From positions 1 through 37,481 of IMG/VR virus record IMGVR_UViG_2534681936_000021: DNA of 37,481 bases; one strand, 5' to 3'. Under the pieces are notes generated by a model. The model had not been told where the DNA came from. It was given only the letters and a program-made list of their open reading frames with translations, and ran no database searches. Both the position numbers and the translations under genes were made by a program. Of the stretch, positions 5,085 to 36,485 are shown in pieces. The stretch comes from a virus. Lineage: Duplodnaviria > Heunggongvirae > Uroviricota > Caudoviricetes. How positions within the stretch are numbered: the stretch's first letter is position 1; each line of letters starts with the position of its first letter.

Positions 5085-7943
5085 ATGACGGCAGAGTACA
5101 TCAGGGACTGGCAACAACCGCGCCACGCAGTGGGGCGTGAAGGAACGGGGATCCCCGTTCCTGAATCCGCGCTTTCCTCCTGGCTGGATGCCTACCGGGC
5201 AGAGAACGAGCGCCGCCAGGAAATGGCTGATGCGGCGTTCTCCGCCACGCCGCTGAGCAACCTGATTAATAAAAGCCTGGACGCACAGGAAAAACAGGAC
5301 AAAACCATCACACTGGCAGGAGACGCCAGAAAACAGGCACGCGGCGCGGTGGATGAAGCCATGGCCTCGCTGCGCCTGCTGCCGTCCTATCTGCGCGATC
5401 CGCTTATTCGCCACCTCTCCTTCCTGCGCAAAAAACAGGAAGCCGATCGCCGGAAAGGCAAAAAGAGCTGGCAGGCTGAACGCTACGCGCGCGGAACCCT
5501 GCGCAAAATATTCGAACGTCTGGACCGCACCGACCACCGCTGGCTGACACCGGGTTATCGCTCCCTTGCCGGACGCGAACGCCTGGATGATTTGCTTTAC
5601 CTGCCGCAGCTCAACCAGCACCAGATACAGACGCTGGCCACCATGACGGCGGCGATGTTCAGCAGCACCTTCGAAAAACTCTGCGATGGCTTTGGCGCGA
5701 CCGATGGCGAACTGACCATGGATGTAACGCTGAAGGCGTATCAGATGCTGGCCCGCATGGCGTTACACCTGCACGCCATGCCGCCACATTACGAAGCTCT
5801 GAACAAGAGCGATCCGGATACGGAACTGTTACCGGGCGCAATCCTTCGCCTGACCTGTGCGGAATGGTGGAAACGCAAACTGTGGCTGTTACGTTGCGAG
5901 TGGCGGGAAGAACAACTCCGCGCCGCCTGTCTGGTTTCCAAAAAAACATCGCCCTATCTGAGCCAGGACGCGTTAAGCGAGTTTCGCGCACAGCGCGAGA
6001 AAACACGCGATTTCCTGAAAAGTTTCATGCTGGAAAACGAAGACGGGTTCACGATTGATCTCGAGACAGTGTATTACGCGGGAGTAAGTAACCCGGTTCA
6101 CCGTAAGGCAGAAATGATGGCCACCATGAAGGGGCTGGAACTTCTGGCCGAAGCCCGTGGCGACAAAGCGGTGTTTCTGACCATCACCTGCCCGTCAAAA
6201 TACCACGCCACAACAGAGAACGGTCATCCGAATCCCAAATGGAACGGGGCCACCATGCGCGACTCCAGCGATTACCTGGTTAACACGTTTTTTGCGGCGG
6301 TCCGCAAGAAACTGAACCGCGACGGCCTGCGCTGGTATGGCATCCGCACAGTGGAGCCTCACCATGACGGCACCGTGCACTGGCATATGATGGTCTTTGC
6401 TCATCCGGAAGAAATCGACACCATTGTGTCCCACACCCGCGATATTGCCATTCAGGAAGATCGTCACGAGCTGGGTGATGATATTACCCCACGCTTTAAG
6501 GCGGAGTACGTCGACGGCTCAAAAGGCACGCCAACCAGCTACATCGCCACCTACATCGGAAAGAACCTGGACAGCCGCGCCGTAGATGGCATCGACCCGA
6601 AAACGGGCAAGCCACGCGTTGACCACGAAACCGGAAAATCGATGGCCGAGAGCGTGGAACGCGCCATCGGCTGGGCGCGCCTTCACCGTGTCCGCCAGTT
6701 CCAGTTCTTTGGTATCCCCTCCCGTCAGGTGTGGCGTGAACTCCGCCGCCTTGCCAGCCAGATGGCACGCAACCCGGAAGGCCCGCAACGGCTGAAGGAT
6801 GACGCAATGGATGCGGTACTCGCTGCCGCTGATGCCGGATGTTTTGCCACCTACATAGAGAAACAGGGCGGCGTACTTGTTCCACGCAAAGACTACCTGA
6901 TTCGCACCGCCTACGACCTCGCAGATGAGCTGAACGATTACGGCGAACAGAGCGTACAGATTTACGGGATCTGGTCACCACTCATCGGGGAATCCTCCCG
7001 TGTGTGCACGCATCCGGATAACTGGAAGCTGGTAAGACGCAAACCGGAAGCGGAAGACAGCGCCCGCGAAAATGGTTTTGACCTTCAGGGCGCCCCTGCC
7101 GCCCCTTGGACTCGTGGCAATAACTGTCCCCGTATACAGGAAACGGGCAACAACGGGACAGAACAGCCGGAAGAACGGCCAGCACCGTGGCCGCAGCTTC
7201 CTGACGGCGTTGACGTGAATGAATGGATGCGCTCACTGAAACGGCACGAACACCGGGCGCTGATGCGTTCGCTGCGTGACAAACAGGCAAAAAACAGCAG
7301 TGATGAAATGCAGAACTGGACACAGAGCCGCAAACAGCCACAGCCTTTGCCTGATAACCACGAGTTACTCGCTAAAGAATGGCGGGAGTCTGCTGAATCT
7401 CTCGGCCTGCATATCGGTGAACAGCAGATGCAGCACCTGTTACGGGGCGGCAGTCTGTACGTTGACGGCAGCATCATTGCACCGCAGGGATTTGAAATTG
7501 TACGCAAACCGGATACCCGCCCGGACAGCCGAATCACGCAGCTCTGGCAACGCCTGAGCCGTAATCACGGCGTAAGCAGCACGGAGATCCGCCATAACCC
7601 GGTCGCCAGCTATCTGGAACAGCTGGGGGCATCAGACCCCGAAGCCGCCACACGCCTGGAATCCACACTTCAGCAGGACCAGAACACCATGAAAACCCCC
7701 GTTACCGTGCTTTCTGACATGCTGTGCGCCATCCGTGACGCAGAGCACGCACAGAGAATCAGTGAAACCACTGAACGCGCCCGCCGCAAAGCAGACCTGC
7801 TGCGGGGTAGCCTGACCAGTGGAAACAAAAAACAGACAGAAACGGGACTCACAAATCCCGTAAATGAGCAAAAACGTGCCGCGATATATGAAGCGCGCAC
7901 AAAACAGGCAAAAGCGGGATTTAAAAATCCTGTAACCGATTAA
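5085..7943 (+). CDS. A: replication initiation endonuclease, P2 gpA family (rolling-circle HUH nickase), 952 aa
   Basis: HUH-like motif EPHHDGTVHWHMMVF and tyrosine motif YIATYIGK in the translation; position after the early genes as in P2. Confidence 0.9.
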   Translation: MTAEYIRDWQQPRHAVGREGTGIPVPESALSSWLDAYRAENERRQEMADAAFSATPLSNLINKSLDAQEKQDKTITLAGDARKQARGAVDEAMASLRLLPSYLRDPLIRHLSFLRKKQEADRRKGKKSWQAERYARGTLRKIFERLDRTDHRWLTPGYRSLAGRERLDDLLYLPQLNQHQIQTLATMTAAMFSSTFEKLCDGFGATDGELTMDVTLKAYQMLARMALHLHAMPPHYEALNKSDPDTELLPGAILRLTCAEWWKRKLWLLRCEWREEQLRAACLVSKKTSPYLSQDALSEFRAQREKTRDFLKSFMLENEDGFTIDLETVYYAGVSNPVHRKAEMMATMKGLELLAEARGDKAVFLTITCPSKYHATTENGHPNPKWNGATMRDSSDYLVNTFFAAVRKKLNRDGLRWYGIRTVEPHHDGTVHWHMMVFAHPEEIDTIVSHTRDIAIQEDRHELGDDITPRFKAEYVDGSKGTPTSYIATYIGKNLDSRAVDGIDPKTGKPRVDHETGKSMAESVERAIGWARLHRVRQFQFFGIPSRQVWRELRRLASQMARNPEGPQRLKDDAMDAVLAAADAGCFATYIEKQGGVLVPRKDYLIRTAYDLADELNDYGEQSVQIYGIWSPLIGESSRVCTHPDNWKLVRRKPEAEDSARENGFDLQGAPAAPWTRGNNCPRIQETGNNGTEQPEERPAPWPQLPDGVDVNEWMRSLKRHEHRALMRSLRDKQAKNSSDEMQNWTQSRKQPQPLPDNHELLAKEWRESAESLGLHIGEQQMQHLLRGGSLYVDGSIIAPQGFEIVRKPDTRPDSRITQLWQRLSRNHGVSSTEIRHNPVASYLEQLGASDPEAATRLESTLQQDQNTMKTPVTVLSDMLCAIRDAEHAQRISETTERARRKADLLRGSLTSGNKKQTETGLTNPVNEQKRAAIYEARTKQAKAGFKNPVTD

Positions 7944-7967
7944 TTATTCAACATAAGGAAAAGCGAC

Positions 7968-8927
7968 ATGAAAATTTGTATCGATGACGGCTCCACCAAC
8001 ATCAAGCTGGCATGGACTGAGAACGGCGAACGCCGCAACGCCATCAGCCCAAACAGCTTCAAGTCGGAATGGTCTGCGCCGTTCGGTGGCACGCAGCCCG
8101 CGAACTACATGCTTGATGGCGTGCGCTATGGTTTTGATCCGGTCAGCGATCGCTTTGTCCAGACGACCGACACGCAATACCAGTACAGCGATGTGAATGT
8201 CATTGCTATTCATCACGCGCTGGTCAAATCAGGCATCACACCACAGGAAGTGGATGTGGTTGTCACCCTGCCACTGAGCGAATATTTCGACACAAACGCA
8301 CAGCCGGACATGGTCAACATCAACCGCAAAAAAGCGAACGTCATGCGCCCGGTGGAGTACCAGAACGGCGAAGCATTCACTATCCGTAACGTACGGGTTA
8401 TGCCTGAATCCATTCCGGCTGGCTTTAAAGCACTGGCTGACATGAGTCCGTTTGAATCCCTGCTGATTGTGGATTTGGGCGGAACCACGCTGGATGTGGC
8501 AAAGGTTCAGGGGCAACTGGCAGGTATCAGCCAGGTGTTTTGCGATCCACACGTAGGCGTTTCTCTGATGGCCGATGCCGTACTGTCGGTGATGGCCACT
8601 AACGGTATGCGCACCAGTCACCACATCGCCAATACCATTATCGAACGTCGCCATAATGAAGCCTGGCTGCGCCAGCACATCCACAATGACGCGCATTACG
8701 CCAGCCTGATGGCGGTTATTCGTGAAAAGGAAGAAACACTGAAACAACGCGTGATCCGCGCGCTGGCGGGTTTTTCGGGTTACGGGCGGGTGATGGTTGT
8801 CGGTGGAGGGGCGGAGATTGTGGCACCCGCTATCCGCGAAGCCTGCGGAGTTAATGCGACTTTCATCGCGGACGGGGTGCCACAGTTTGCTCTGGTTAAT
8901 GGGCTGTACGCAATGGACAAGGAGTAA
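7968..8927 (+). CDS. parM: ParM/StbA-family actin-like ATPase
   Basis: N-terminus MKICIDDGSTNIKLAW plus YSDVNVIAIHHAL, VMPESIPAGF, LIVDLGGTTLDV and VMVVGGGAE closely parallel plasmid R1 ParM as recalled. Confidence 0.85.
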   Translation: MKICIDDGSTNIKLAWTENGERRNAISPNSFKSEWSAPFGGTQPANYMLDGVRYGFDPVSDRFVQTTDTQYQYSDVNVIAIHHALVKSGITPQEVDVVVTLPLSEYFDTNAQPDMVNINRKKANVMRPVEYQNGEAFTIRNVRVMPESIPAGFKALADMSPFESLLIVDLGGTTLDVAKVQGQLAGISQVFCDPHVGVSLMADAVLSVMATNGMRTSHHIANTIIERRHNEAWLRQHIHNDAHYASLMAVIREKEETLKQRVIRALAGFSGYGRVMVVGGGAEIVAPAIREACGVNATFIADGVPQFALVNGLYAMDKE

Positions 8928-8931
8928 ACCA

Positions 8932-9243
8932 ATGACAACACCAACCAGACGGATAAGTTTCTATCTGAAGCCAGCTGCCGTCAAGAACGAAGGAGAAGCA
9001 TGCGCCTGGCTGGACAGCCTTACACCAGAAGCCCGCAAAAGCGGCCAACGCGTGGCTTTTCTGGCCGGGCTGGCACTTCTGAAGACGAATCCGGCAGAGG
9101 CTTACCGACTGGCCGCATGGGCTGATGATGAGATGTTACCTGTGACACAAATCAGCTCAAAAAAGTTTGAAGCACAGTCTGCACCAGTGGCTAAGATAAC
9201 CAGCCAGATGGCTGGGAATATCCGGGCGTTATTTCCTGAGTAA
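8932..9243 (+). CDS. parR: ParR-like small DNA-binding partner (103 aa)
   Basis: RBS aaggag upstream, 4 nt after the parM stop; N-terminus RRISFYLKP and LAGLALL segment resemble R1 ParR as recalled. Confidence 0.6.
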   Translation: MTTPTRRISFYLKPAAVKNEGEACAWLDSLTPEARKSGQRVAFLAGLALLKTNPAEAYRLAAWADDEMLPVTQISSKKFEAQSAPVAKITSQMAGNIRALFPE

Positions 9244-9284
9244 AAGCATCTGCGCGAAAAATGCTCACGTTTATAGAGACAGTA

Positions 9285-9430
9285 TCATTCCATTTGGCAC
9301 ACTTACTTCAATAATCGATCTGTTAAACAAATAGATTGTCTATTATCTATCGATTAAAACGATCAATTATCTTGACAGTAATGTGCCTTTTTGTAAGATC
9401 GTTCGCATTGTGAGCGACAAGATAATTGCG
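9285..9430. repeat. iteron-like repeat cluster (four CGATC/TCGAT cores; inverted repeat caattatcttg / caagataattg)
   Basis: Seen directly in the sequence downstream of parR; candidate centromere or operator. Confidence 0.35.
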
Positions 9431-14789: not shown

Positions 14790-15841
14790 ATGAATCTGGT
14801 GATGTCAGATATTACCCGCAACAAGCTGGGTTGCTATATGGCGCAGCAGGCGTCGCTTAACAATATCCCGGTATCTGCACTGGTATCGCGATTTACCGTG
14901 GAACCCTCGGTGCAGCAGCGTTTTGAAAACGCAGTAAAGGAGAGCACTGAATTTACAAAAAAATTAACGTGTTCGGTGTGACTGACCAGAAAGGCGAAAA
15001 AATCCTCCTGGACACCACCGGGCCGATTGCGCGCACGAATACCAGTTATGACGGCACAAAACGCCGTAACCCGAATAACGTGGTTGATCTGAAAAACCGC
15101 AAATACCAGTGCGAACAGGTGAACTACGACACGTTTATTTCGTATCCGCAGCTTGATGCCTGGGCGGCACACCCTGATTTTCAGTCCCGCGTCAGCACAC
15201 AGATTGCCCGGCAGGTGGCGCTTGACCGCATCATGATCGGTTTCAACGGCACGTCTCACGCGGATGAGTCCAACTTCAGCACTAACAAGCTGCTTCAGGA
15301 CGTTAACGTGGGATGGCTGGAGCACATCAGAACCGACGCCAGCGAGCGCGTTATGAATGATGTAACGCTGACCTCCCGCAACATGGACAACACCGTGGCG
15401 CACGCGGGTAAATATGCGAACGCTGATGCACTGGTACAGGACGCGCGCTCATCCCTGCTGGATGAATGGCACAAGGAAGCTGACGACCTCGTGGTGATTA
15501 TGGGGCGCAACCTGTTTAACTCGCTGCGTCTGCCCGTGCTGAACAGCATCAGCGGCCAGAATCCCAATGCGGAATTACTTGCCGGACAGCTCATCCTGTC
15601 ATCGCGCGCCATTGGCGGGCTGGATGTATTCCTTGCGCCGTTCTTCCCGGATGCAACGATGCTGATCACCTCGTTCAACAACCTGTCAATTTACTGGCAG
15701 AAAGGAACAATGCGTCGCCTGATGAAAGACGAGCCGGAATACAACCGCATTGCCACCTACCAGTCCATCAATGACGCTTATGTCGTTGAAGACTATGGCA
15801 AGTGCGCGATGGTCACTGGCCTGAAGTTCGCCGACAGCTAA
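14790..15841 (+). pseudogene. N: major capsid protein gpN-like, split by a single-base frameshift near the A7 run at 14957-14963
   Basis: Track ORFs 14790-14981 and 14969-15841 together read as one gpN-like protein (FTVEPSV..., KGEKI..., LSIYWQ..., YVVEDYG) if one base is restored near 14960-14970. Confidence 0.75.
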
Positions 15842-23892: not shown

Positions 23893-24494
23893 TGACACAG
23901 GCAAAATTAAACAGTGAATTTATTGCCACAGTAGCGGGTGATATTACCGTCTATAACTATGACAACACGACACGGGAATACATTTCATCATCAACAGAAT
24001 ATCTTGCCGTTGGCGTCGGTATCCCGGCATGTTCTTGTTTAGATGCACCAGTTACACATAAAGCTGGTTATGCAATCTGCCGTTCTGCAGATTTTAACTC
24101 ATGGGAATATGTACCAGACCATCGCGGTGAAATCATCTATAGCACCGAAACAGGAGAATCGAAAGAAATCACAGCTCCGGGTGATTACCCTGAAAATACA
24201 ACCACTATCGCCCCGTTAACGCCATTCGATAAATGGGATGGTGAGAAATGGGTGACGGATACCGAGGCACAGCATAGCGCCGCACTAGACGCGGCAGAAG
24301 CAAAGCGCCAGTCGCTGATTGATGCTGCAATGGCTTCCATCAGTCTGATTCAGATGAAATTACGGGCCGGGCGGAAGCTGACGCAGGCAGAAACCACCCG
24401 ACTTAACGCTGTGCTGGATTACATTGACGCGGTGGAGGCAACAGATACCAGCACCGCGCCTGATGTCATCTGGCCTGAACTGCCGGAGGCGTAG
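23892..24494 (+). CDS. G: tail fibre assembly chaperone gpG-like (copy 1)
   Basis: 200 aa; C-terminal WPELPEA-type tail typical of fibre assembly proteins; follows H. Confidence 0.8.
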   Translation: MTQAKLNSEFIATVAGDITVYNYDNTTREYISSSTEYLAVGVGIPACSCLDAPVTHKAGYAICRSADFNSWEYVPDHRGEIIYSTETGESKEITAPGDYPENTTTIAPLTPFDKWDGEKWVTDTEAQHSAALDAAEAKRQSLIDAAMASISLIQMKLRAGRKLTQAETTRLNAVLDYIDAVEATDTSTAPDVIWPELPEA

Positions 24495-24906
24495 GCCATT
24501 CAATATCTGGCGCACCGGAAGTATCGACCAGTTCCAGTGCGTCCAGATAATCCAGCCACAAATTATATTGCGCCAGTTCCCCACCTTTCAGGCGACCAAT
24601 CGCCGCTTTACCAGGCCATTGCTTACTGTTTATGTATTCGTTGACCTGATTAATCAATTGCTGCTTTTCCAGTTCGGCTGCGGCAATTTGTTCCTCATGA
24701 GTTGGCGGTGGAGTATCAATCCATGCAGGCATTCCGTCGATGACACCTCTGTATTTTCCTTCTGGTGCTTCCTTCATAAATTCGGCGGCAACAGTGTCGT
24801 CAATTTCGATTCCATCACCGGGCCATTCGCCGGATTCCTGATAAGCGATTTTAAGCTCCACAGGGAAAAACGCATTTTTATCGGCACTGAAAATATATTT
24901 CTGCAT
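24466..24906 (-). CDS. tail fibre assembly chaperone, alternative copy (G')
   Basis: 146 aa, convergent with and overlapping G by 29 bp; similar C-terminal motif (DIEWPTPP). Confidence 0.75.
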   Translation of the reverse strand: MQKYIFSADKNAFFPVELKIAYQESGEWPGDGIEIDDTVAAEFMKEAPEGKYRGVIDGMPAWIDTPPPTHEEQIAAAELEKQQLINQVNEYINSKQWPGKAAIGRLKGGELAQYNLWLDYLDALELVDTSGAPDIEWPTPPAVQAR

Positions 24907-24908
24907 TT

Positions 24909-25307
24909 CTACCGTCCTATCGAAATATAACTGAATCTGTATTGCTGTGAGATATCACTGGTTGCCACACGCCACGCTGAATTACTGATATGTTCAAAAT
25001 TTACAGACAAAACCTGCGGGGCAGGATTCGACGGGGCTGACTGAACGGCATCAGACATAACACTGACTGAAACCATCGGCTGATTAGGGAATGGTATAGG
25101 GAAGTGTCCACTGATAAAGCGGGTCGTGTTTCCTGAAAAAGTGCCAAACTGAACAATATATCCACCTGGTAGCCTGAACCATCCCGAACCAGAAGCGAAT
25201 GCTCCCATATCCGGTATCTGATTATCTCCTGTGCCCACATTCCGTTTTGCCGCTTCTCCCAAACCAACGTTTAAGAAAATGCAGAGATTATGGCTAACTG
25301 GCATCAT
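24909..25307 (-). CDS. alternative tail fibre C-terminal segment (Hv'); functional only when fused to the H N-terminus by inversion
   Basis: Frame is continuous with the crossover core at 25265; translation after the core (GLGEAAKRNVG...) parallels H after its core (GLGEGSALPVG...). Confidence 0.6.
   Translation of the reverse strand: MMPVSHNLCIFLNVGLGEAAKRNVGTGDNQIPDMGAFASGSGWFRLPGGYIVQFGTFSGNTTRFISGHFPIPFPNQPMVSVSVMSDAVQSAPSNPAPQVLSVNFEHISNSAWRVATSDISQQYRFSYISIGR
25254..25279. promoter_or_regulatory. right crossover site for the DNA invertase (ttctcccaaacc-aa-cgtttaagaaaa)
   Basis: Inverted partner of 23378-23403; lies 56 bp upstream of the invertase gene. Confidence 0.65.
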
Positions 25308-25334
25308 CCCCGGTTTTTATTCAGGGGATCCATC

Positions 25335-25934
25335 ATGCTTATTGGCTATGTCCGCGTATCAACAAATGACCAGAATACAGAATTGCAGCGTAACGCGCTG
25401 GAGTGCGCAGGATGTGAACTGATTTTTGAAGATAAAATCAGCGGAACGAAATCAGCCAGACCGGGATTGAAAAAACTGATCAGAACGCTATCAGAAGGAG
25501 ATACGCTGGTTGTCTGGAAGCTGGACAGACTGGGCAGAAGTATGAAACACCTGATCACGCTTATTGAGGAATTGCGGGAAAAAGGTGTTAATTTCCGTAG
25601 TCTGACGGACAGCATTGACACATCAACACCCATGGGGCGTTTCTTTTTTCACGTCATGGGGGCTTTAGCCGAAATGGAACGTGAATTAATTGTAGAGCGT
25701 ACACTGGCCGGGCTGGCAGCAGCACGCGCACAAGGACGCATTGGCGGACGTCGCCCGAAGTTGACAAAAGAACAACACGAGCAAATAGCGAGGCTGATTA
25801 AAAACGGTCATGACAGGAAACAACTGGCGATCATTTACGACATCGGCATATCGACGATTTATCGTTATCACCCTGTAGGCGATATACAGGCTGAAGAAAC
25901 AACCAGGCAGACTCAGGAAAATGAAAACCGCTAA
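25335..25934 (+). CDS. serine DNA invertase (Gin/Hin/Pin/Cin family)
   Basis: N-terminus MLIGYVRVSTNDQNTELQ with the catalytic serine context; resolvase-type fold and C-terminal helix-turn-helix (GISTIYRY). Confidence 0.9.
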   Translation: MLIGYVRVSTNDQNTELQRNALECAGCELIFEDKISGTKSARPGLKKLIRTLSEGDTLVVWKLDRLGRSMKHLITLIEELREKGVNFRSLTDSIDTSTPMGRFFFHVMGALAEMERELIVERTLAGLAAARAQGRIGGRRPKLTKEQHEQIARLIKNGHDRKQLAIIYDIGISTIYRYHPVGDIQAEETTRQTQENENR

Positions 25935-31693: not shown

Positions 31694-32802
31694 ATGACCG
31701 ACACCACCATGCAATTGCTCAGTCAGGGCACAGACCCCGTGAAAATGCCGGATTTTGATATTCTCGCGGAGGGTAAAACGCTGTCAGGCGTGGCAGAGCG
31801 CCTGATGAGCCTGTCACTGACCGACAACCGGGGATTTGAAGCGGACCAGCTCACCATCACGCTGGATGATGCGGATGGTCAGTTGCAGCTACCGCCACGG
31901 GGCGCGCGCCTGACGGTTCTCATTGGCTGGAAAGGAGAACCGCTGACAGAAAAAGGCACTTACATTGTTGATGAAATCGCTCACGAAGGACCGCCGGACA
32001 GGCTGACTGTTTCAGCCAGAAGCGCAGATTTTCGGGATGAATTTAACGTTAAACGTGAGGTGTCCTGGCATGATGTGACCGTTGAGCGTGTGGTATCCGC
32101 CATCGCTCATCGGTACGGTCTGAAACCGCAAATCAGCGAAATGCTGATGGATATCGAAATCGACCACGCCGACCAGACCGAAGAAAGCGACATGTCCTTC
32201 CTTACGCGCATGGCGGAAATGCTGGGCGCAATCACCACGGTAAAAAGCGGCAATCTGTTATTCATCATGCCTGGTGGTGGCGTGAACGCACAGGGCCAGC
32301 CGTTGCCCTCGTTCGCCATTACACGCAGCAGTGGCGATCGCCATCAGTTCCGCATTGCTGACCGCGAGGCGTATACGGGTGTACGCGCCTACTGGCTTGA
32401 TCTTAATTACGGGAAAAAGAAAAAGTCAGCGTGAAACGCCGCAAACCGCCAAAACCCAAAAAGGAGAAAAGCAGCAGCCGTGAAGGTGATTATATGGAAG
32501 GCGCGGAAGGCAATGTGTTTGTGTTACGCAAGACTTATCAGAACGAGCAGGCAGCAAGACGCGCAGCGGCGGCAAAGTGGCAGCAGCTACAACGCGGAGC
32601 CGCATCATTCTCCATCATGCTGGCACGCGGACGCGCAGAACTCTACCCCGAAATGCATGGCACGGTAACAGGCTTTAAAAGCGAGATTGATAATCAGGAC
32701 TGGATTATTGCAAAAGCCGAGCACACCATTGATAACAGCGGCTTTACCACACAGCTTGAGCTTGAGGCAAAAATCCCGGAATGGATAGCAGAAACAGAGT
32801 GA
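31694..32802 (+). pseudogene. D: late control / tail protein gpD-like, split by a single-base frameshift in the gggaaaaagaaaaag run (about 32411-32430)
   Basis: Track ORFs ending at 32434 and starting at 32431 together give a gpD-like protein (...SWHDVT..., ...GDRHQF..., ...QDWIIAKAEH...SGFTTQLELE...). Confidence 0.75.
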
Positions 32803-32922: not shown

Positions 32923-33945
32923 TTAATACGCATTTAATTTAAATTTGTATTTGCCTTCTATGTAATGGATAAATTCAATTATGCTTTTTTCTATCGCATC
33001 TAATATATGAATATATCCATCCCGATTTAAGGTCCTATCCAACTCAAAGTGATGAACTATCCCATGTCTATATTGTATGATTTCAGAAATTCGATTCTCA
33101 AGAAAATCAACTGATTTTCCAATTCTTTTTTTCTTATAAAGAATCGCTCTCACATCTATATCCAGCCACTCTTTATATGCTTTGTTTAGGTGGGTTAAGT
33201 TTTGAAAAGTGTAATTTCTTGCAATAACACTTTCTATTGAAATATTTCCTTTCTCTATCTCAAGCAGAATATCAAAATCAACTTTTTGCTTATACGATGT
33301 TCTTTTTGCTATTGCGAAAGGATCGTACTTTATAAGTATTTGAAAAGCTCTAGAGAAAAAATATTCAAACATAGCAACCGCAAAAGGTACTAATCCATTA
33401 TATATAACTCTACTGGGATCCATACATTGCATGTAATCAAAGTATTCGGATAAGCCGCCATCTTCCGGTAGGTTTAATTTAATAGAAGGTTCAGGTAAGG
33501 CATGTTTAACAGCGGAAATCTCATGATGGACATGATTAAATATTGAAGAAATGCCACGACTGATCGGACTACTAGAATCCTTCCATAGAGGAGCGTACCT
33601 ATTTTTCCCATAATCACCTATAAGTGTTCCACCAAAAAGACTCCGTGCGCCTTTTAGAACATCATTAAGCATTTTTACATCATGCCAACTAGCGCTATAT
33701 AAATTACGCACATGCAATGCCCATTTATTACCAGATATGTGTAGTTCGTCATTTGAAACAGGATATATATCAGCCGAAACTCCATCTGTAGATTTGAAGT
33801 CCGTATCATCAAACCAAGAGTAATTCAACGTTCCTTGGGGCCATTCCCACAAATGTTTACACCTTTTAAAACCTAAATTTTCAAGGTAATTTTTAAGTTC
33901 GTTTCTAGTTGCTTTTTTAGGGTACAGCGTTATATCTCTTCCCAT
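32923..33945 (-). CDS. hypothetical 340-aa protein in an AT-rich insertion; C-terminal Rx4HH motif (candidate HEPN-like abortive-infection protein)
   Basis: Long clean ORF in markedly AT-rich DNA between D and ogr; motif YRHGIVHHFE near the C-terminus. Confidence 0.6.
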   Translation of the reverse strand: MGRDITLYPKKATRNELKNYLENLGFKRCKHLWEWPQGTLNYSWFDDTDFKSTDGVSADIYPVSNDELHISGNKWALHVRNLYSASWHDVKMLNDVLKGARSLFGGTLIGDYGKNRYAPLWKDSSSPISRGISSIFNHVHHEISAVKHALPEPSIKLNLPEDGGLSEYFDYMQCMDPSRVIYNGLVPFAVAMFEYFFSRAFQILIKYDPFAIAKRTSYKQKVDFDILLEIEKGNISIESVIARNYTFQNLTHLNKAYKEWLDIDVRAILYKKKRIGKSVDFLENRISEIIQYRHGIVHHFELDRTLNRDGYIHILDAIEKSIIEFIHYIEGKYKFKLNAY

Positions 33946-34136: not shown

Positions 34137-34397
34137 ATGTTCCGTTGTCCGCTTTGTGGCGCATCTGCCCGTATCCGCACAAGTCGTCCGGAAAATGATT
34201 CAAACACCGTGCGGCAAAAGTATTACCAGTGTAACAATCTGGAATGCGGCGTATGCTTCTCAACACTGGAAGCTTTCCATAAATTCACATCGAAACACGC
34301 CTCCGGCGTTCACTCTTCAGAAGGTATCCCGTGGCATGAGCTACCAGCTTCACACAGGGGAAACAATCAGATGAGTTTGCCTTTACCTCAGAATTAA
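34137..34397 (+). CDS. ogr: Ogr/Delta-family zinc-finger late transcription activator
   Basis: MFRCPLCGA...CNNLEC zinc-finger pattern typical of P2 Ogr; RBS agggagg upstream. Confidence 0.8.
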   Translation: MFRCPLCGASARIRTSRPENDSNTVRQKYYQCNNLECGVCFSTLEAFHKFTSKHASGVHSSEGIPWHELPASHRGNNQMSLPLPQN

Positions 34398-34588
34398 CAA
34401 GCAGAATTGCCGGAGTAACAAAAAAGCGATAGATTACGCGCGGGTGCCTTTCGGCTGATGGTCGGAGGGAATACCCGAAGGCCAGATGTGGAAAGGCCCC
34501 GGAAAACACTTTTGTTTAACCGAGGCCCTAACCGTCTACCCTAAGCAAGTGAAAGGTTAGCGCCTCTCCGGAAAAGGAGCAAGTGCTA

Positions 34589-34729
34589 TGTCGCAAAAAT
34601 CGCTTACAGCCATCACGTTCTGCGTGACGGTAATCCTCATCATCTGGATGTTGCACGGTTCGCTGTGCGAAATACGGATGAGTTTCTGGGGAGCGGAGTT
34701 TGCGGCGTTCTTACAGTGTAAGCAGTAAG
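34589..34729 (+). CDS. Hok/Gef-family type I toxin (46 aa), below the ORF-track size cutoff
   Basis: MSQKSLTAITFCVTVILIIWMLHGSLCEIR...AEFAAFL: transmembrane helix followed by the Hok-like SLCEIR and E(F/V)AAF motifs; RBS aaggag 8 nt upstream. Confidence 0.6.
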
Positions 34730-34738
34730 GAAACCGCG

Positions 34739-34760
34739 ACGGGGGAGTAATCCCCCGTCA
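34739..34760 (+). other. stable 9-bp hairpin just 3' of the hok-like ORF (gacggggga-gtaa-tcccccgtc)
   Basis: Perfect inverted repeat 10 nt after the stop; consistent with a hok mRNA 3' fold. Confidence 0.5.
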
Positions 34761-34989
34761 ATCGGTTGCCAGGGTAAGGTCGATAAGGCACCCTATCTCA
34801 CGGCTCTAAATGCAAAAATTCCATGAAACTGTGGGATTTTTGCATCACTACTGATACAGATCTGACCTTCTTTATGTCTCACTCTATACCAGCTAATCAA
34901 TTGACACTTATCAATAAAAAAAAATCTGATAAAATCAAAATGTTTTGTAACAAATATCAACTCGTATTGATCCAAAGGAGGCGGATTAC

Positions 34990-35322
34990 ATGGCATTAAT
35001 CAAATGTCCTGAATGCCAGAAAGAGGTGAGCGATTCAGCATTGTATTGCCCTGCTTGCGGTAAACAAATAAAAAAACTTAAGCGTTCATTTTTTGGAAAG
35101 CTCATTAAGTGGATTTTTATATTATTTAATATTTTTATGATCTATACGCTTTTAGTTGGACTGGGAGGCACTAGTGAAATAATAAATAATGCTACATCCG
35201 ATGCCGAAAAAGCCGGTGCAGTTATTGGTACAGGCTTAGGTTTAATTACCATTGGAAGTTTATGGGTTATTGGCGATATCATTATCGGAATTTTAGTGTT
35301 TCTTACTAAACCAAAAGGATAA
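34990..35322 (+). CDS. zinc-ribbon membrane protein (110 aa)
   Basis: N-terminal CPEC...CPAC zinc ribbon followed by two hydrophobic helices; AT-rich context. Confidence 0.5.
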   Translation: MALIKCPECQKEVSDSALYCPACGKQIKKLKRSFFGKLIKWIFILFNIFMIYTLLVGLGGTSEIINNATSDAEKAGAVIGTGLGLITIGSLWVIGDIIIGILVFLTKPKG

Positions 35323-35326
35323 CAAA

Positions 35327-36218
35327 ATGAAAAATATAATTTTTCTATAGGTGCATCATTTATATCAATTGGTGTACTGCCTGTTCACGCAGCAACTGAA
35401 CATAATAACTTCAATGCAGTACTCCAGTGCCGAGCAATAGAAAATAATAAAGACAGACTTTCTTGTTACGATAAGTCAATACAACCGACTCGAACGAAAG
35501 TTGCTGAAAAATTCGAAAGCAGAGATCAATGCCCTGATGAGAAAGATGATGACAGACGTTTATCTTGTTATGATCGTTTTTTTCTCCAACATTTACTCCA
35601 TCTGTAAACTCAAAATCTAAAACGGAAAAGCCAGTAACAACAGAGGCTCAGCAACCAAATCTTTCTGAGATATCTAAATGCCGAGCAGAAAATGATAAAG
35701 AAGCCAGACTAAACTGCTACGATAAACTATTCCCACAGGATAAAGCTGTTCAAGCTGAATCAAAATTAGAGAAAGCCACAGATGTAGGAAAATGGCACAC
35801 ATCCATTACTACATCGCCAATTGATGATTCGAAAAATGTAATTTTATCGTTAGAAAGTGATGATTATATCAGAACTCCATTTGGAGAAGCGGTTACTCCT
35901 ACTCTGTTTATAGCTTGCCGAGAAAAGAAAACCGAAGTATTTCTTGGTTGGGATGTATATTTAGGCCTTGAACAAACCAGCATGCTTTATCGTCTTGATA
36001 AACAGAAAGCAGTTGAGCGAAACTGGCTAGTATCTACAGATACAAAGGCTGTTTTTTATAAAGGTAATGACATTGATTTCATCCGAAAACTAGCCAACTC
36101 AAACAAAATGTATACAAAAATAACTCCTTATAATGAGAGCCCTGTAAGTGCAACTTTCAATTTAAACGGCCTGTCAAACGCGCTAAAACCACTTCAAGCT
36201 GCTTGTAACTGGAAATAG
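35327..36218 (+). pseudogene. frameshifted gene for a secreted protein with three Cys-x9-10-Cys-Tyr-Asp repeats
   Basis: Signal-peptide-like start (MKNIIF...); frame breaks at T-runs near 35340 and 35577-35583; an ATG-less open frame continues to 36218. Confidence 0.45.
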
Positions 36219-36245
36219 CATAAATCATGTGGCTTAGCCACAATC

Positions 36246-36289
36246 ACAGATAACACAAAGCCCGTGGAAACGGGCTTTGTGTTATCTGT
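36246..36289. other. 19-bp perfect inverted repeat with 6-nt loop (acagataacacaaagcccg / cgggctttgtgttatctgt)
   Basis: Seen directly; lies between the upstream pseudogene and the candidate attR. Confidence 0.55.
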
Positions 36290-36299
36290 AACTCGAAAA

Positions 36300-36319
36300 T
36301 GTGGTCACTACGTGGACAC
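36300..36319. repeat. candidate attR core (tgtggtcactacgtggacac)
   Basis: 17 of 20 identity in direct orientation with 10-29 at the int end. Confidence 0.35.
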
Positions 36320-36485
36320 GTGCTGATATAAATCCTTTTATATCAATAAATTAAATCATCATTTTTTTCATCAACAAGGATTTTCACGTTTGTGTTACCT
36401 GTATGAGACGAGAGTTAACCGGACAAGTGTGCCATAATCTCGCGGCCAGGCATACTTGCGAAGATTTCAGGTATAAGGATACGTA

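Follow-up and report, generated by a model that had tools for sequence, protein, structure and literature searches.

The gene at 35327-36218 of the window, which here means the whole 37,481-nucleotide stretch of viral DNA analysed (IMG/VR virus record IMGVR_UViG_2534681936_000021), is very likely a 'moron' gene of a P2-like (Peduoviridae) prophage located in pdxB next to flk. It would encode an exported protein of the VasI/TagO family, and it is broken by one-base deletions in two T runs. The gene, its family, its annotation as frameshifted and its status as phage cargo are already on record. The features that define the reading frame are as follows.

35327-36218, plus strand: VasI/TagO-family gene (PF11319) with two one-base deletions; the conceptual repair is 297 aa long, and the identical locus of E. 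coli DEC5A is labelled 'TagO, frameshifted' in PGAP.
35340-35344, plus strand: first frameshift site, T5 (T6 in intact alleles), in codons 5-7; the frame stops at TAG 35348-35350.
35577-35583, plus strand: second frameshift site, T7 (T8 in intact alleles, where it encodes R-F-F-S), just after repeat 2.
35327-35391, plus strand: signal-peptide-like N-terminus, MKNIIFSIGASFISIGVLPVHA followed by A, by inspection of the repaired protein; it has no lipobox cysteine.

The ATG at 35327 as written encodes only MKNIIFL, with a stop after seven codons. The second frame, shifted by one, extends from the T5 run to the T7 run and reads FSIGASFISIGVLPVHAATE...CYDRFF. The third frame, with one further shift past T7, reads SPTFTPS...ACNWK and ends at the stop codon 36216-36218. 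Addition of one T to each run yields a single 297-aa open reading frame that matches the intact E. coli IHE3034 protein WP_000789404.1 at all but two residues, and each break is one T missing relative to IHE3034; the interruption at two T-runs described in an initial annotation of this DNA is thus confirmed. The repaired protein also shares 99% identity with a protein cluster of 846 members.

The N-terminus (MKNIIFSIGASFISIGVLPVHA followed by ATE) has the look of a Sec signal peptide when judged by inspection, in agreement with the secreted protein proposed initially, and a comparable hydrophobic N-terminus is present in all aligned homologues. Eight conserved cysteines are located in the mature part. 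The signal-like N-terminus and these cysteines suggest that the intact protein is periplasmic and disulfide-bonded.

The family had been left unrecognised, and a domain search with the repaired protein supplied it: Pfam VasI (PF11319) was matched at 89.3 bits (cutoff 26.5; E 3e-25) over the full 184-position profile. Three stretches of the repaired protein match PF11319, two of them extra, partial ones over repeats 1 and 2. The NCBI PGAP/RefSeq label of the DEC5A locus is 'TagO, frameshifted', and intact copies elsewhere are labelled 'TagO'. The repaired protein contains the C-x11-C-[YF]-D hairpin and the two C-terminal-domain cysteines of the VasI family, a pattern that it has in common with the T6SS-2 VasI. 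Three copies of the hairpin are present.

35428-35472, plus strand: repeat 1, CRAIENNKDRLSCYD, C-x11-C-Y-D; predicted helix-turn-helix hairpin with helices at residues 29-35 and 41-51, kept in three- and two-repeat homologues.
35530-35574, plus strand: repeat 2, CPDEKDDDRRLSCYD; it ends just 5' of the second T run and is found only in three-repeat homologues.
35679-35723, plus strand: repeat 3, CRAENDKEARLNCYD; the ancestral copy, which is the N-terminal motif of the VasI domain and is present in nearly every family member.

These repeats had been described as three Cys-x9-10-Cys-Tyr-Asp units. The three repeats are real, but the spacing is 11 residues in all of them. When the window was searched in six frames for C-x(9-11)-C-[YF]-D, they were the sole matches, whereas shuffled windows contained 0.36 on average. 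Repeat 3 lies inside the Pfam VasI domain, in which profile positions 1-184 correspond to residues 118-296. In the AlphaFold2 model the repeats are helical hairpins.

Conservation of the repeats in homologues was borne out by an alignment of 55 homologues and by the full-length open reading frames recovered for repeat counting from 64 of 66 species-level loci. By length, the aligned homologues form three classes, which carry one, two or three C-x11-C-Y-D units; residues C119, R128, L129, C131, D133 and C198 are invariant among the 55, and C294 is at least 90% conserved. The C-x11-C-[YF]-D motif was found in 55 of the 64 full-length frames, always with a spacing of 11 residues. Exactly one unit is present in 46 of the 64, and the T6SS-2 VasI of IHE3034 also has a single unit. 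Two or three units were found in Enterobacterales only (64 full-length frames). One hairpin is the norm of the family, and expansion to two or three has occurred in the enterobacterial prophage clade.

The repeats are followed by a C-terminal domain, for which a length of roughly 200 aa had been given. The confidently folded part of the AlphaFold2 model (pLDDT >90) is shorter, about 150 aa.

35772-36215, plus strand: C-terminal beta-sandwich with an IalB-like fold and conserved C198 and C294; residues ~150-297.

This domain matches the structure of IalB, the invasion-associated locus B protein of Bartonella (PF06776; PDB 3dtd). Identity is 16-18%, and the Pfam IalB score of 20.6 is under the cutoff of 22.1. 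The part of the model that can be aligned to IalB does not include the C-x11-C-Y-D hairpins, and nothing points to an involvement of the prophage protein in host-cell invasion. The sole PDB match obtained by sequence search, a Tubby-like protein, was rejected as spurious (E 0.02).

The window is nearly identical to the corresponding DNA of E. coli O55:H7 DEC5A (NZ_CP038394.1), from which it differs over its 37,481 bases by a single substitution and two gaps of one base each. The P2-like prophage in it lies between pdxB and flk, inserted in the 5' end or first codons of pdxB. The elements at the attR end of the prophage are listed below.

34137-34397, plus strand: ogr/Delta late-gene activator, annotated as an ogr/Delta-like zinc finger in DEC5A; it is the last core P2-like gene, and the cargo island starts directly after it.
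34442-34728, plus strand: hok/sok-type type I toxin-antitoxin locus, the first cargo element; sok-like RNA at 34442-34601 and Hok ORF at 34588-34728.
34908-34935, plus strand: candidate sigma-70-like promoter upstream of the zinc-ribbon gene, with an extended -10; a consensus match only (9/12, TG before the -10).
34990-35322, plus strand: 110-aa membrane protein; zinc ribbon (CPEC...CPACG) at the N-terminus, matched by Pfam Zn_Ribbon_1 at 31.2 bits, and two hydrophobic spans.
36246-36289, no strand assigned: perfect hairpin with a 20-bp stem, just downstream of the VasI-family gene; -43.4 kcal/mol, z-score -10.7.
36365-36384, no strand assigned: attR core, TTTTCATCAACAAGGATTTT, a 20-bp direct repeat; the other copy is located at the 5' end of pdxB, immediately left of the window.

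The empty site of K-12 MG1655 matches the outer flanks of both att copies, and host sequence resumes exactly at the core. The two 20-bp core repeats and this empty site indicate that the AT-rich island between ogr and attR is phage DNA. The gene ends at 36218, inside the att-defined boundaries. GC content is 39% in the island (34398-36364) and 36.5% in the gene, compared with 53% in the rest of the prophage, so the gene does belong to an AT-rich cargo island of an att-bounded prophage, as first described. The Hok ORF was identified by Pfam HOK_GEF (30.1 bits, over the cutoff) and by PHROG 251, 'MokW-like host killing'; the Rfam sok match reaches 51.9 bits (E 6e-10), under the gathering score of 59. 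Promoter-like sites are no more numerous in this region than in shuffles, and 34908-34935 is a weak consensus match. The hairpin at 36246-36289 is a terminator lacking a T tail or else an att-arm element; the sole substitution relative to DEC5A, at position 36267, is in its loop. An inversion was considered for the sheath-to-gpU block and gpD in view of their opposite orientation. This was dropped because Dickeya, Klebsiella and other E. coli prophages have the same layout.

The same cargo gene is carried by several Peduoviridae, namely Citrobacter phage phiSM (Shae_phiSM, ORF1), Xuanwuvirus P884B11, Escherichia phages PhiR44_2 and 500465-2 and Klebsiella phage 3LV2017. The copies of the E. 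coli and Citrobacter phages are 94-99% identical and those of the Klebsiella phages 64%, and a homologue is present in 27 phage records. In phiSM and 500465-2, whose surroundings were examined, the gene is at the genome end, adjoining ogr and directly after the zinc-ribbon gene. The position after ogr is common to phiSM and to prophages of Klebsiella, Dickeya and Salmonella. The gene is accessory ('moron') cargo, as it is non-core, has an atypical GC content and occupies the same position after ogr in related phages. The copies in described Peduoviridae are intact, whereas the copy in the window has two one-base deletions.

The zinc-ribbon gene ends with a stop codon 4 nt before the ATG of the VasI-family gene, and the two genes appear to be co-transcribed. 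Its product belongs to PHROG 6586 (E 7e-43), which like PHROG 1848 is labelled 'unknown function', and shows a weak DrpB-like match under the cutoff (E 1.4e-4). The protein is predicted to lie in the inner membrane with a cytoplasmic zinc ribbon and a periplasmic loop of 16 residues. Its gene immediately precedes the VasI-family gene in E. coli, Klebsiella, Dickeya, other Enterobacterales and phiSM. The order ogr, zinc-ribbon gene, VasI-family gene recurs in Dickeya and Klebsiella, where the chromosomal sites differ, in phiSM and in six species-level loci; two further species-level loci have the zinc-ribbon gene without P2 markers.

Membership in PF11319 raises the question of type VI secretion. 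VasI of V. cholerae (VCA0118) is a predicted exported accessory protein that is dispensable for Hcp secretion and needed for killing (PMC3166118), and a 2026 review (PMC13584744) lists T6SS TagO/VasI as a protein of unknown function. T6SS VasI/TagO and the prophage protein share PF11319, a C-x11-C-[YF]-D hairpin, a beta-sandwich with two more cysteines and an N-terminus suggestive of export. In the prophage protein the single hairpin of the T6SS protein is triplicated, the equivalog score is under the cutoff, and the gene is placed beside a zinc-ribbon partner in a P2-like prophage and not between tssH and tssA. The repaired protein scores 75.3 bits against the TIGR03360 equivalog, below the cutoff of 124.2, and its one- and two-repeat prophage relatives score 35-57 bits. 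The T6SS-2 VasI of IHE3034 (WP_000088600.1), a strain that also carries an intact copy of the prophage gene, scores 273.7 bits; it is 22% identical to the prophage protein (E 1e-10) with the same four-cysteine pattern.

Gene context is consistent with these scores. No T6SS genes were found in the window, and no T6SS cluster was found around any of the enterobacterial loci examined, most of which show P2 tail genes and ogr. In E. coli, Dickeya, Klebsiella, Raoultella, Brenneria, Salmonella, Pantoea and phiSM the gene is found just past ogr, where the P2-like genome ends at att, and the zinc-ribbon gene directly precedes it in most of these cases. Among 66 species-level loci, only five from Marinobacter, the most distant relatives (23-25% identity), are in a tssF-to-tssM context, between tssH and tssA. 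About 50 intermediate relatives among the 66 lack phage and T6SS markers alike, share no recurring neighbour and look like orphans. Clustering of the neighbours of the 66 loci revealed nothing recurrent beyond P2 and zinc-ribbon genes in Enterobacterales and T6SS genes in Marinobacter.

The prophage TagO might nevertheless be a true T6SS accessory that works with the T6SS of the host, since it belongs to the same Pfam family as the T6SS-linked VasI proteins, and VasI of V. cholerae is needed for killing; moreover, the phiSM copy has been tabulated as a 'T6SS VasI family protein' among putative T6SS/virulence cargo (PMC6456863). This is quite improbable in view of the low equivalog score, the 22% identity to T6SS-2 VasI, the position beside ogr in a prophage tail-end module and never in a T6SS cluster in the enterobacterial contexts examined, the restriction of tssH-tssA placement to Marinobacter relatives, and the presence in IHE3034 of a vasI gene of its own. 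The low TIGR03360 score, the low identity and the prophage context together indicate that the prophage protein is a homologue of VasI and not the T6SS protein itself. The name 'TagO' is misleading for the prophage clade, which coexists with a genuine T6SS VasI in one strain.

The allele states of the two T runs were surveyed in 5,426 complete E. coli genomes and read from the best 60 matches per search. Among the matches listed, T5 was present in 2 of 166 genomes matching the first site, namely DEC5A and FDAARGOS_946, which belong to one lineage. At least 4 of 235 genomes carried T7 (three exact matches and one on a divergent allele), and all of these are annotated 'frameshifted'. The remaining rows listed had T6 or T8, and among the matches and loci listed there was no +1 state. 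T7 occurs on at least three allelic backgrounds among complete genomes and also in several ENA and Logan assemblies, from which the T8 run is concluded to be a genuine slippage hot spot. A look-up of the 78-aa leftover open reading frame gave one locus (L094) in which transposase/integrase-type genes are called within the VasI gene; the other copies found were T7 alleles. Two more loci (L093 and L095) were considered as disrupted copies and rejected, as their genes are intact and only the annotation is short.

The initial annotation had allowed for a phase-variable gene and had called for a comparison of T-run lengths across strains. The T runs could be an evolved switch, in which slipped-strand mispairing turns a secreted protein on and off: one run is at the extreme 5' end of the open reading frame, the classic position of a switch, and T7 has arisen from T8 on three or more allelic backgrounds and in many assemblies, which marks the longer run as slippage-prone. 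The contingency genes of Haemophilus, Neisseria, Campylobacter and Helicobacter share with this gene a mononucleotide run in the 5' part of the frame, an exported product and length changes that switch the frame. The prophage tracts differ from these in being short (6 and 8 T), rarely in the off state, changed by -1 only and not conserved. Known contingency loci have A/T tracts longer than T6 and T8. Off states amount to ~1-2% of carriers (complete genomes, among the matches listed), T5 is confined to one lineage, and +1 variants were not found in the rows and loci examined. The residues R-F-F-S-P are encoded by CGTTTCTTTTCT in phiSM, AGATTTTTCTCG in Klebsiella and CGCTTCTTCTCA in Enterobacter, where TTC codons interrupt the T8 tract; use of TTC for the same residues in these orthologues indicates that nothing maintains the tract. 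The rarity of off states, the lack of +1 variants among the matches listed and the unmaintained tract all argue against an evolved switch, which is highly improbable. Phase variation is not supported, and the gene is an ordinary broken gene. Programmed frameshifting or transcriptional slippage was also considered as a designed way of expressing the broken gene, since the native sequence would be restored by a -1 slip on AUU-UUU-C. It was rejected by reasoning only, as a proper slippery heptamer and a stimulator are both lacking and most alleles are intact.

The remaining options of the initial annotation, decayed cargo and further homopolymer errors, both fit. Two further deletions in the window set it apart from DEC5A and FDAARGOS_946: the major capsid gene is split by the loss of one A from A8 at 14956, which leaves A7, and gpD by the loss of one A from A6 at 32419, which leaves A5. 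FDAARGOS_946 is the same as DEC5A over 37.5 kb except for T8 at the second site. On otherwise identical DNA there are thus four homopolymer deletions in the window, two in DEC5A and one in FDAARGOS_946, a series that fits under-calling in assembly as well as real mutation.

In the extreme case, the gene would be intact in the organism, and both T-run and both A-run deletions would be homopolymer under-calls of sequencing or assembly. Over 37.5 kb the three assemblies differ only at four homopolymers and one substituted base, all indels are deletions and each disrupts an open reading frame, T8 is restored in FDAARGOS_946, and the window is alone in splitting the capsid gene and gpD as well. Its combination of states is matched by no complete RefSeq genome, which would fit a source assembly of lower quality. 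However, T5 is common to all three assemblies, and the same error is unlikely to be repeated in a run as short as T5/T6. Several ENA and Logan assemblies also have T7, and A7 and A9 variants of the capsid A run are found in other NCBI and Logan assemblies, so these runs may really mutate in nature. An intact gene is therefore rather unlikely. The breaks are attributed to decay, to homopolymer assembly error or to both: T5 probably arose as a real mutation in the DEC5A lineage and alone kills the gene, and T7 is either a slippage mutation at the hot spot or a homopolymer under-call. Four one-base deletions in A/T runs relative to near-identical assemblies mean that pseudogene and phase-variation calls in this window need caution.

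For the broken cargo gene, the following mechanism is proposed. The intact protein would carry a Sec signal peptide, followed by three C-x11-C-Y-D helix-turn-helix hairpins with disordered linkers between them, each hairpin probably clamped by a disulfide, and then by the IalB-like beta-sandwich with its further conserved cysteine pair. The zinc-ribbon/VasI pair, placed between ogr and attR after the hok/sok locus, would operate at the envelope of the lysogen, where the intact VasI-family protein may act with its zinc-ribbon membrane partner. The changes from T6 to T5 in codons 5-7 and from T8 to T7 after repeat 2 break the gene and make an exported product impossible as written, and the module would be inactive in this strain.

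An envelope-level role in lysogenic conversion, such as phage exclusion or the modulation of contact-dependent attack, is favoured over a role in the host T6SS as a best guess of low confidence. Phage cargo near the att site is often protective; this, together with the anti-phage activity of a VasI-like fold, is the basis on which an exclusion or defence role is favoured. PADLOC 2.0.0 returned no matches for the four cargo proteins. Serratia defence islands encode SDIC4B, whose fold resembles VasI and which provides 10-200-fold anti-phage protection (bioRxiv 10.1101/2024.01.28.577318). It is encoded in a small operon that lies outside T6SS clusters and is common in Klebsiella, Salmonella, Citrobacter, Enterobacter and E. 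coli. SDIC4B is reported to lack BLAST-level similarity to VasI and to be located beside BrxR in defence islands, whereas the prophage gene, compared by description only, has a strong Pfam match and a prophage setting; no BrxR-like gene is annotated in the prophage.

A more specific and tentative proposal, rather unlikely to hold, is that the zinc-ribbon gene and the gene for the VasI-domain protein, with its amplified disulfide hairpins, are a dedicated two-gene envelope module of P2-like phages that would protect lysogens by phage exclusion or by blunting T6SS attack, and that this module was lost here by T-run slippage. If so, the name 'TagO' would hide a phage-specific function, and the T6SS VasI proteins would be tied to the anti-phage activity of SDIC4B. 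The phage-borne zinc-ribbon/VasI pair is tidy and testable and could be a convenient way into the function of the VasI family.

The VasI-family cargo gene has copies in other public assemblies. In the homologue locus L094 (Logan SRR30348439), two genes are called at 756-1984 between 219-aa and 78-aa fragments of the VasI-family gene. The proteins encoded by these intervening genes have transposase/integrase-type Pfam matches (HTH_Tnp_1; HTH_21, rve and rve_3) in this one public assembly. The copy appears to have been disrupted by an insertion element, which looks like a third independent route of inactivation for this cargo gene. A two-repeat E. coli variant of the gene is present near tamB at 8001-9400 of another homologue locus, L007 (E. 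coli GCA_009776205.1). The prophage there is also P2-like but distinct from this one, and the variant occupies its ogr end in the opposite orientation. The zinc-ribbon partner gene is not universal, because a gene encoding a TM2-domain protein adjoins the two-repeat variant in its place.

Two further loci flank ogr in the window:

32923-33945, - strand: second AT-rich cargo gene (340 aa, 35% GC), between gpD and ogr
34442-34728, + strand: hok/sok-type type I toxin-antitoxin locus, immediately 3' of ogr

The 340-aa protein shows a sub-threshold match to HEPN RiboL-PSP (E 1e-4), and searches of PADLOC and PHROG gave no match. The gap between gpD and ogr looks like a variable cargo site, because an alpha/beta hydrolase gene fills this slot in one related E. 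coli prophage. The Hok open reading frame of the toxin-antitoxin locus encodes 46 aa, and the Rfam sok match (51.9 bits, E 6e-10) is below the gathering score of 59.

Two structural genes are split in the window:

14790-15841, + strand: major capsid gene, split into open reading frames of 63 aa and 290 aa
31562-32802, + strand: gpD, split into open reading frames of 290 aa and 123 aa

The break in the capsid gene is an A7 run at 14950-14956, which is A8 in the near-identical assemblies DEC5A and FDAARGOS_946. This run is a recurrent frameshift site within this prophage family, since it is also A7 or A9 in other public assemblies. The break in gpD is an A5 run at 32415-32419 (A6 in DEC5A and FDAARGOS_946); PGAP calls just one 266-aa 'VgrG/Pvc8 family' CDS for gpD, open-frame assemblies included.

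The prophage is inserted in the first codons of pdxB. The core copies are located at 36365-36384 of the window and at 39159-39178 of L004 (a stretch of the DEC5A record), the latter being the pdxB 5' end immediately left of the window. Integration leaves the promoter region of pdxB and its native GTG start on the attR side, beside flk; in the lysogen, pdxB must therefore rely on an internal start or on one that the phage provides. The pdxB product called by PGAP has 385 aa in DEC5A, whereas that of FDAARGOS_946 has 370 aa and that of K-12 has 378 aa. A hairpin lies close to attR:

36246-36289: hairpin with a perfect 20-bp stem (-43 kcal/mol, z-score -10.7), between the VasI-family cargo gene and attR

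The hairpin has no T tail, and its loop contains the sole substitution between the window and DEC5A/FDAARGOS_946 (G for A at 36267).

According to the DEC5A annotation, ParM-type and 'plasmid partitioning/stability family' genes adjoin the prophage replication gene, and the prophage also contains a DNA invertase gene and two tail-fibre assembly genes in opposite orientations. The partitioning and invertase regions are at about 7470-8740 and 23900-25400 of the window, corresponding to L004 29734-31009 and 13042-15084, respectively. Such an arrangement of invertase and tail-fibre assembly genes suggests a host-range switch.
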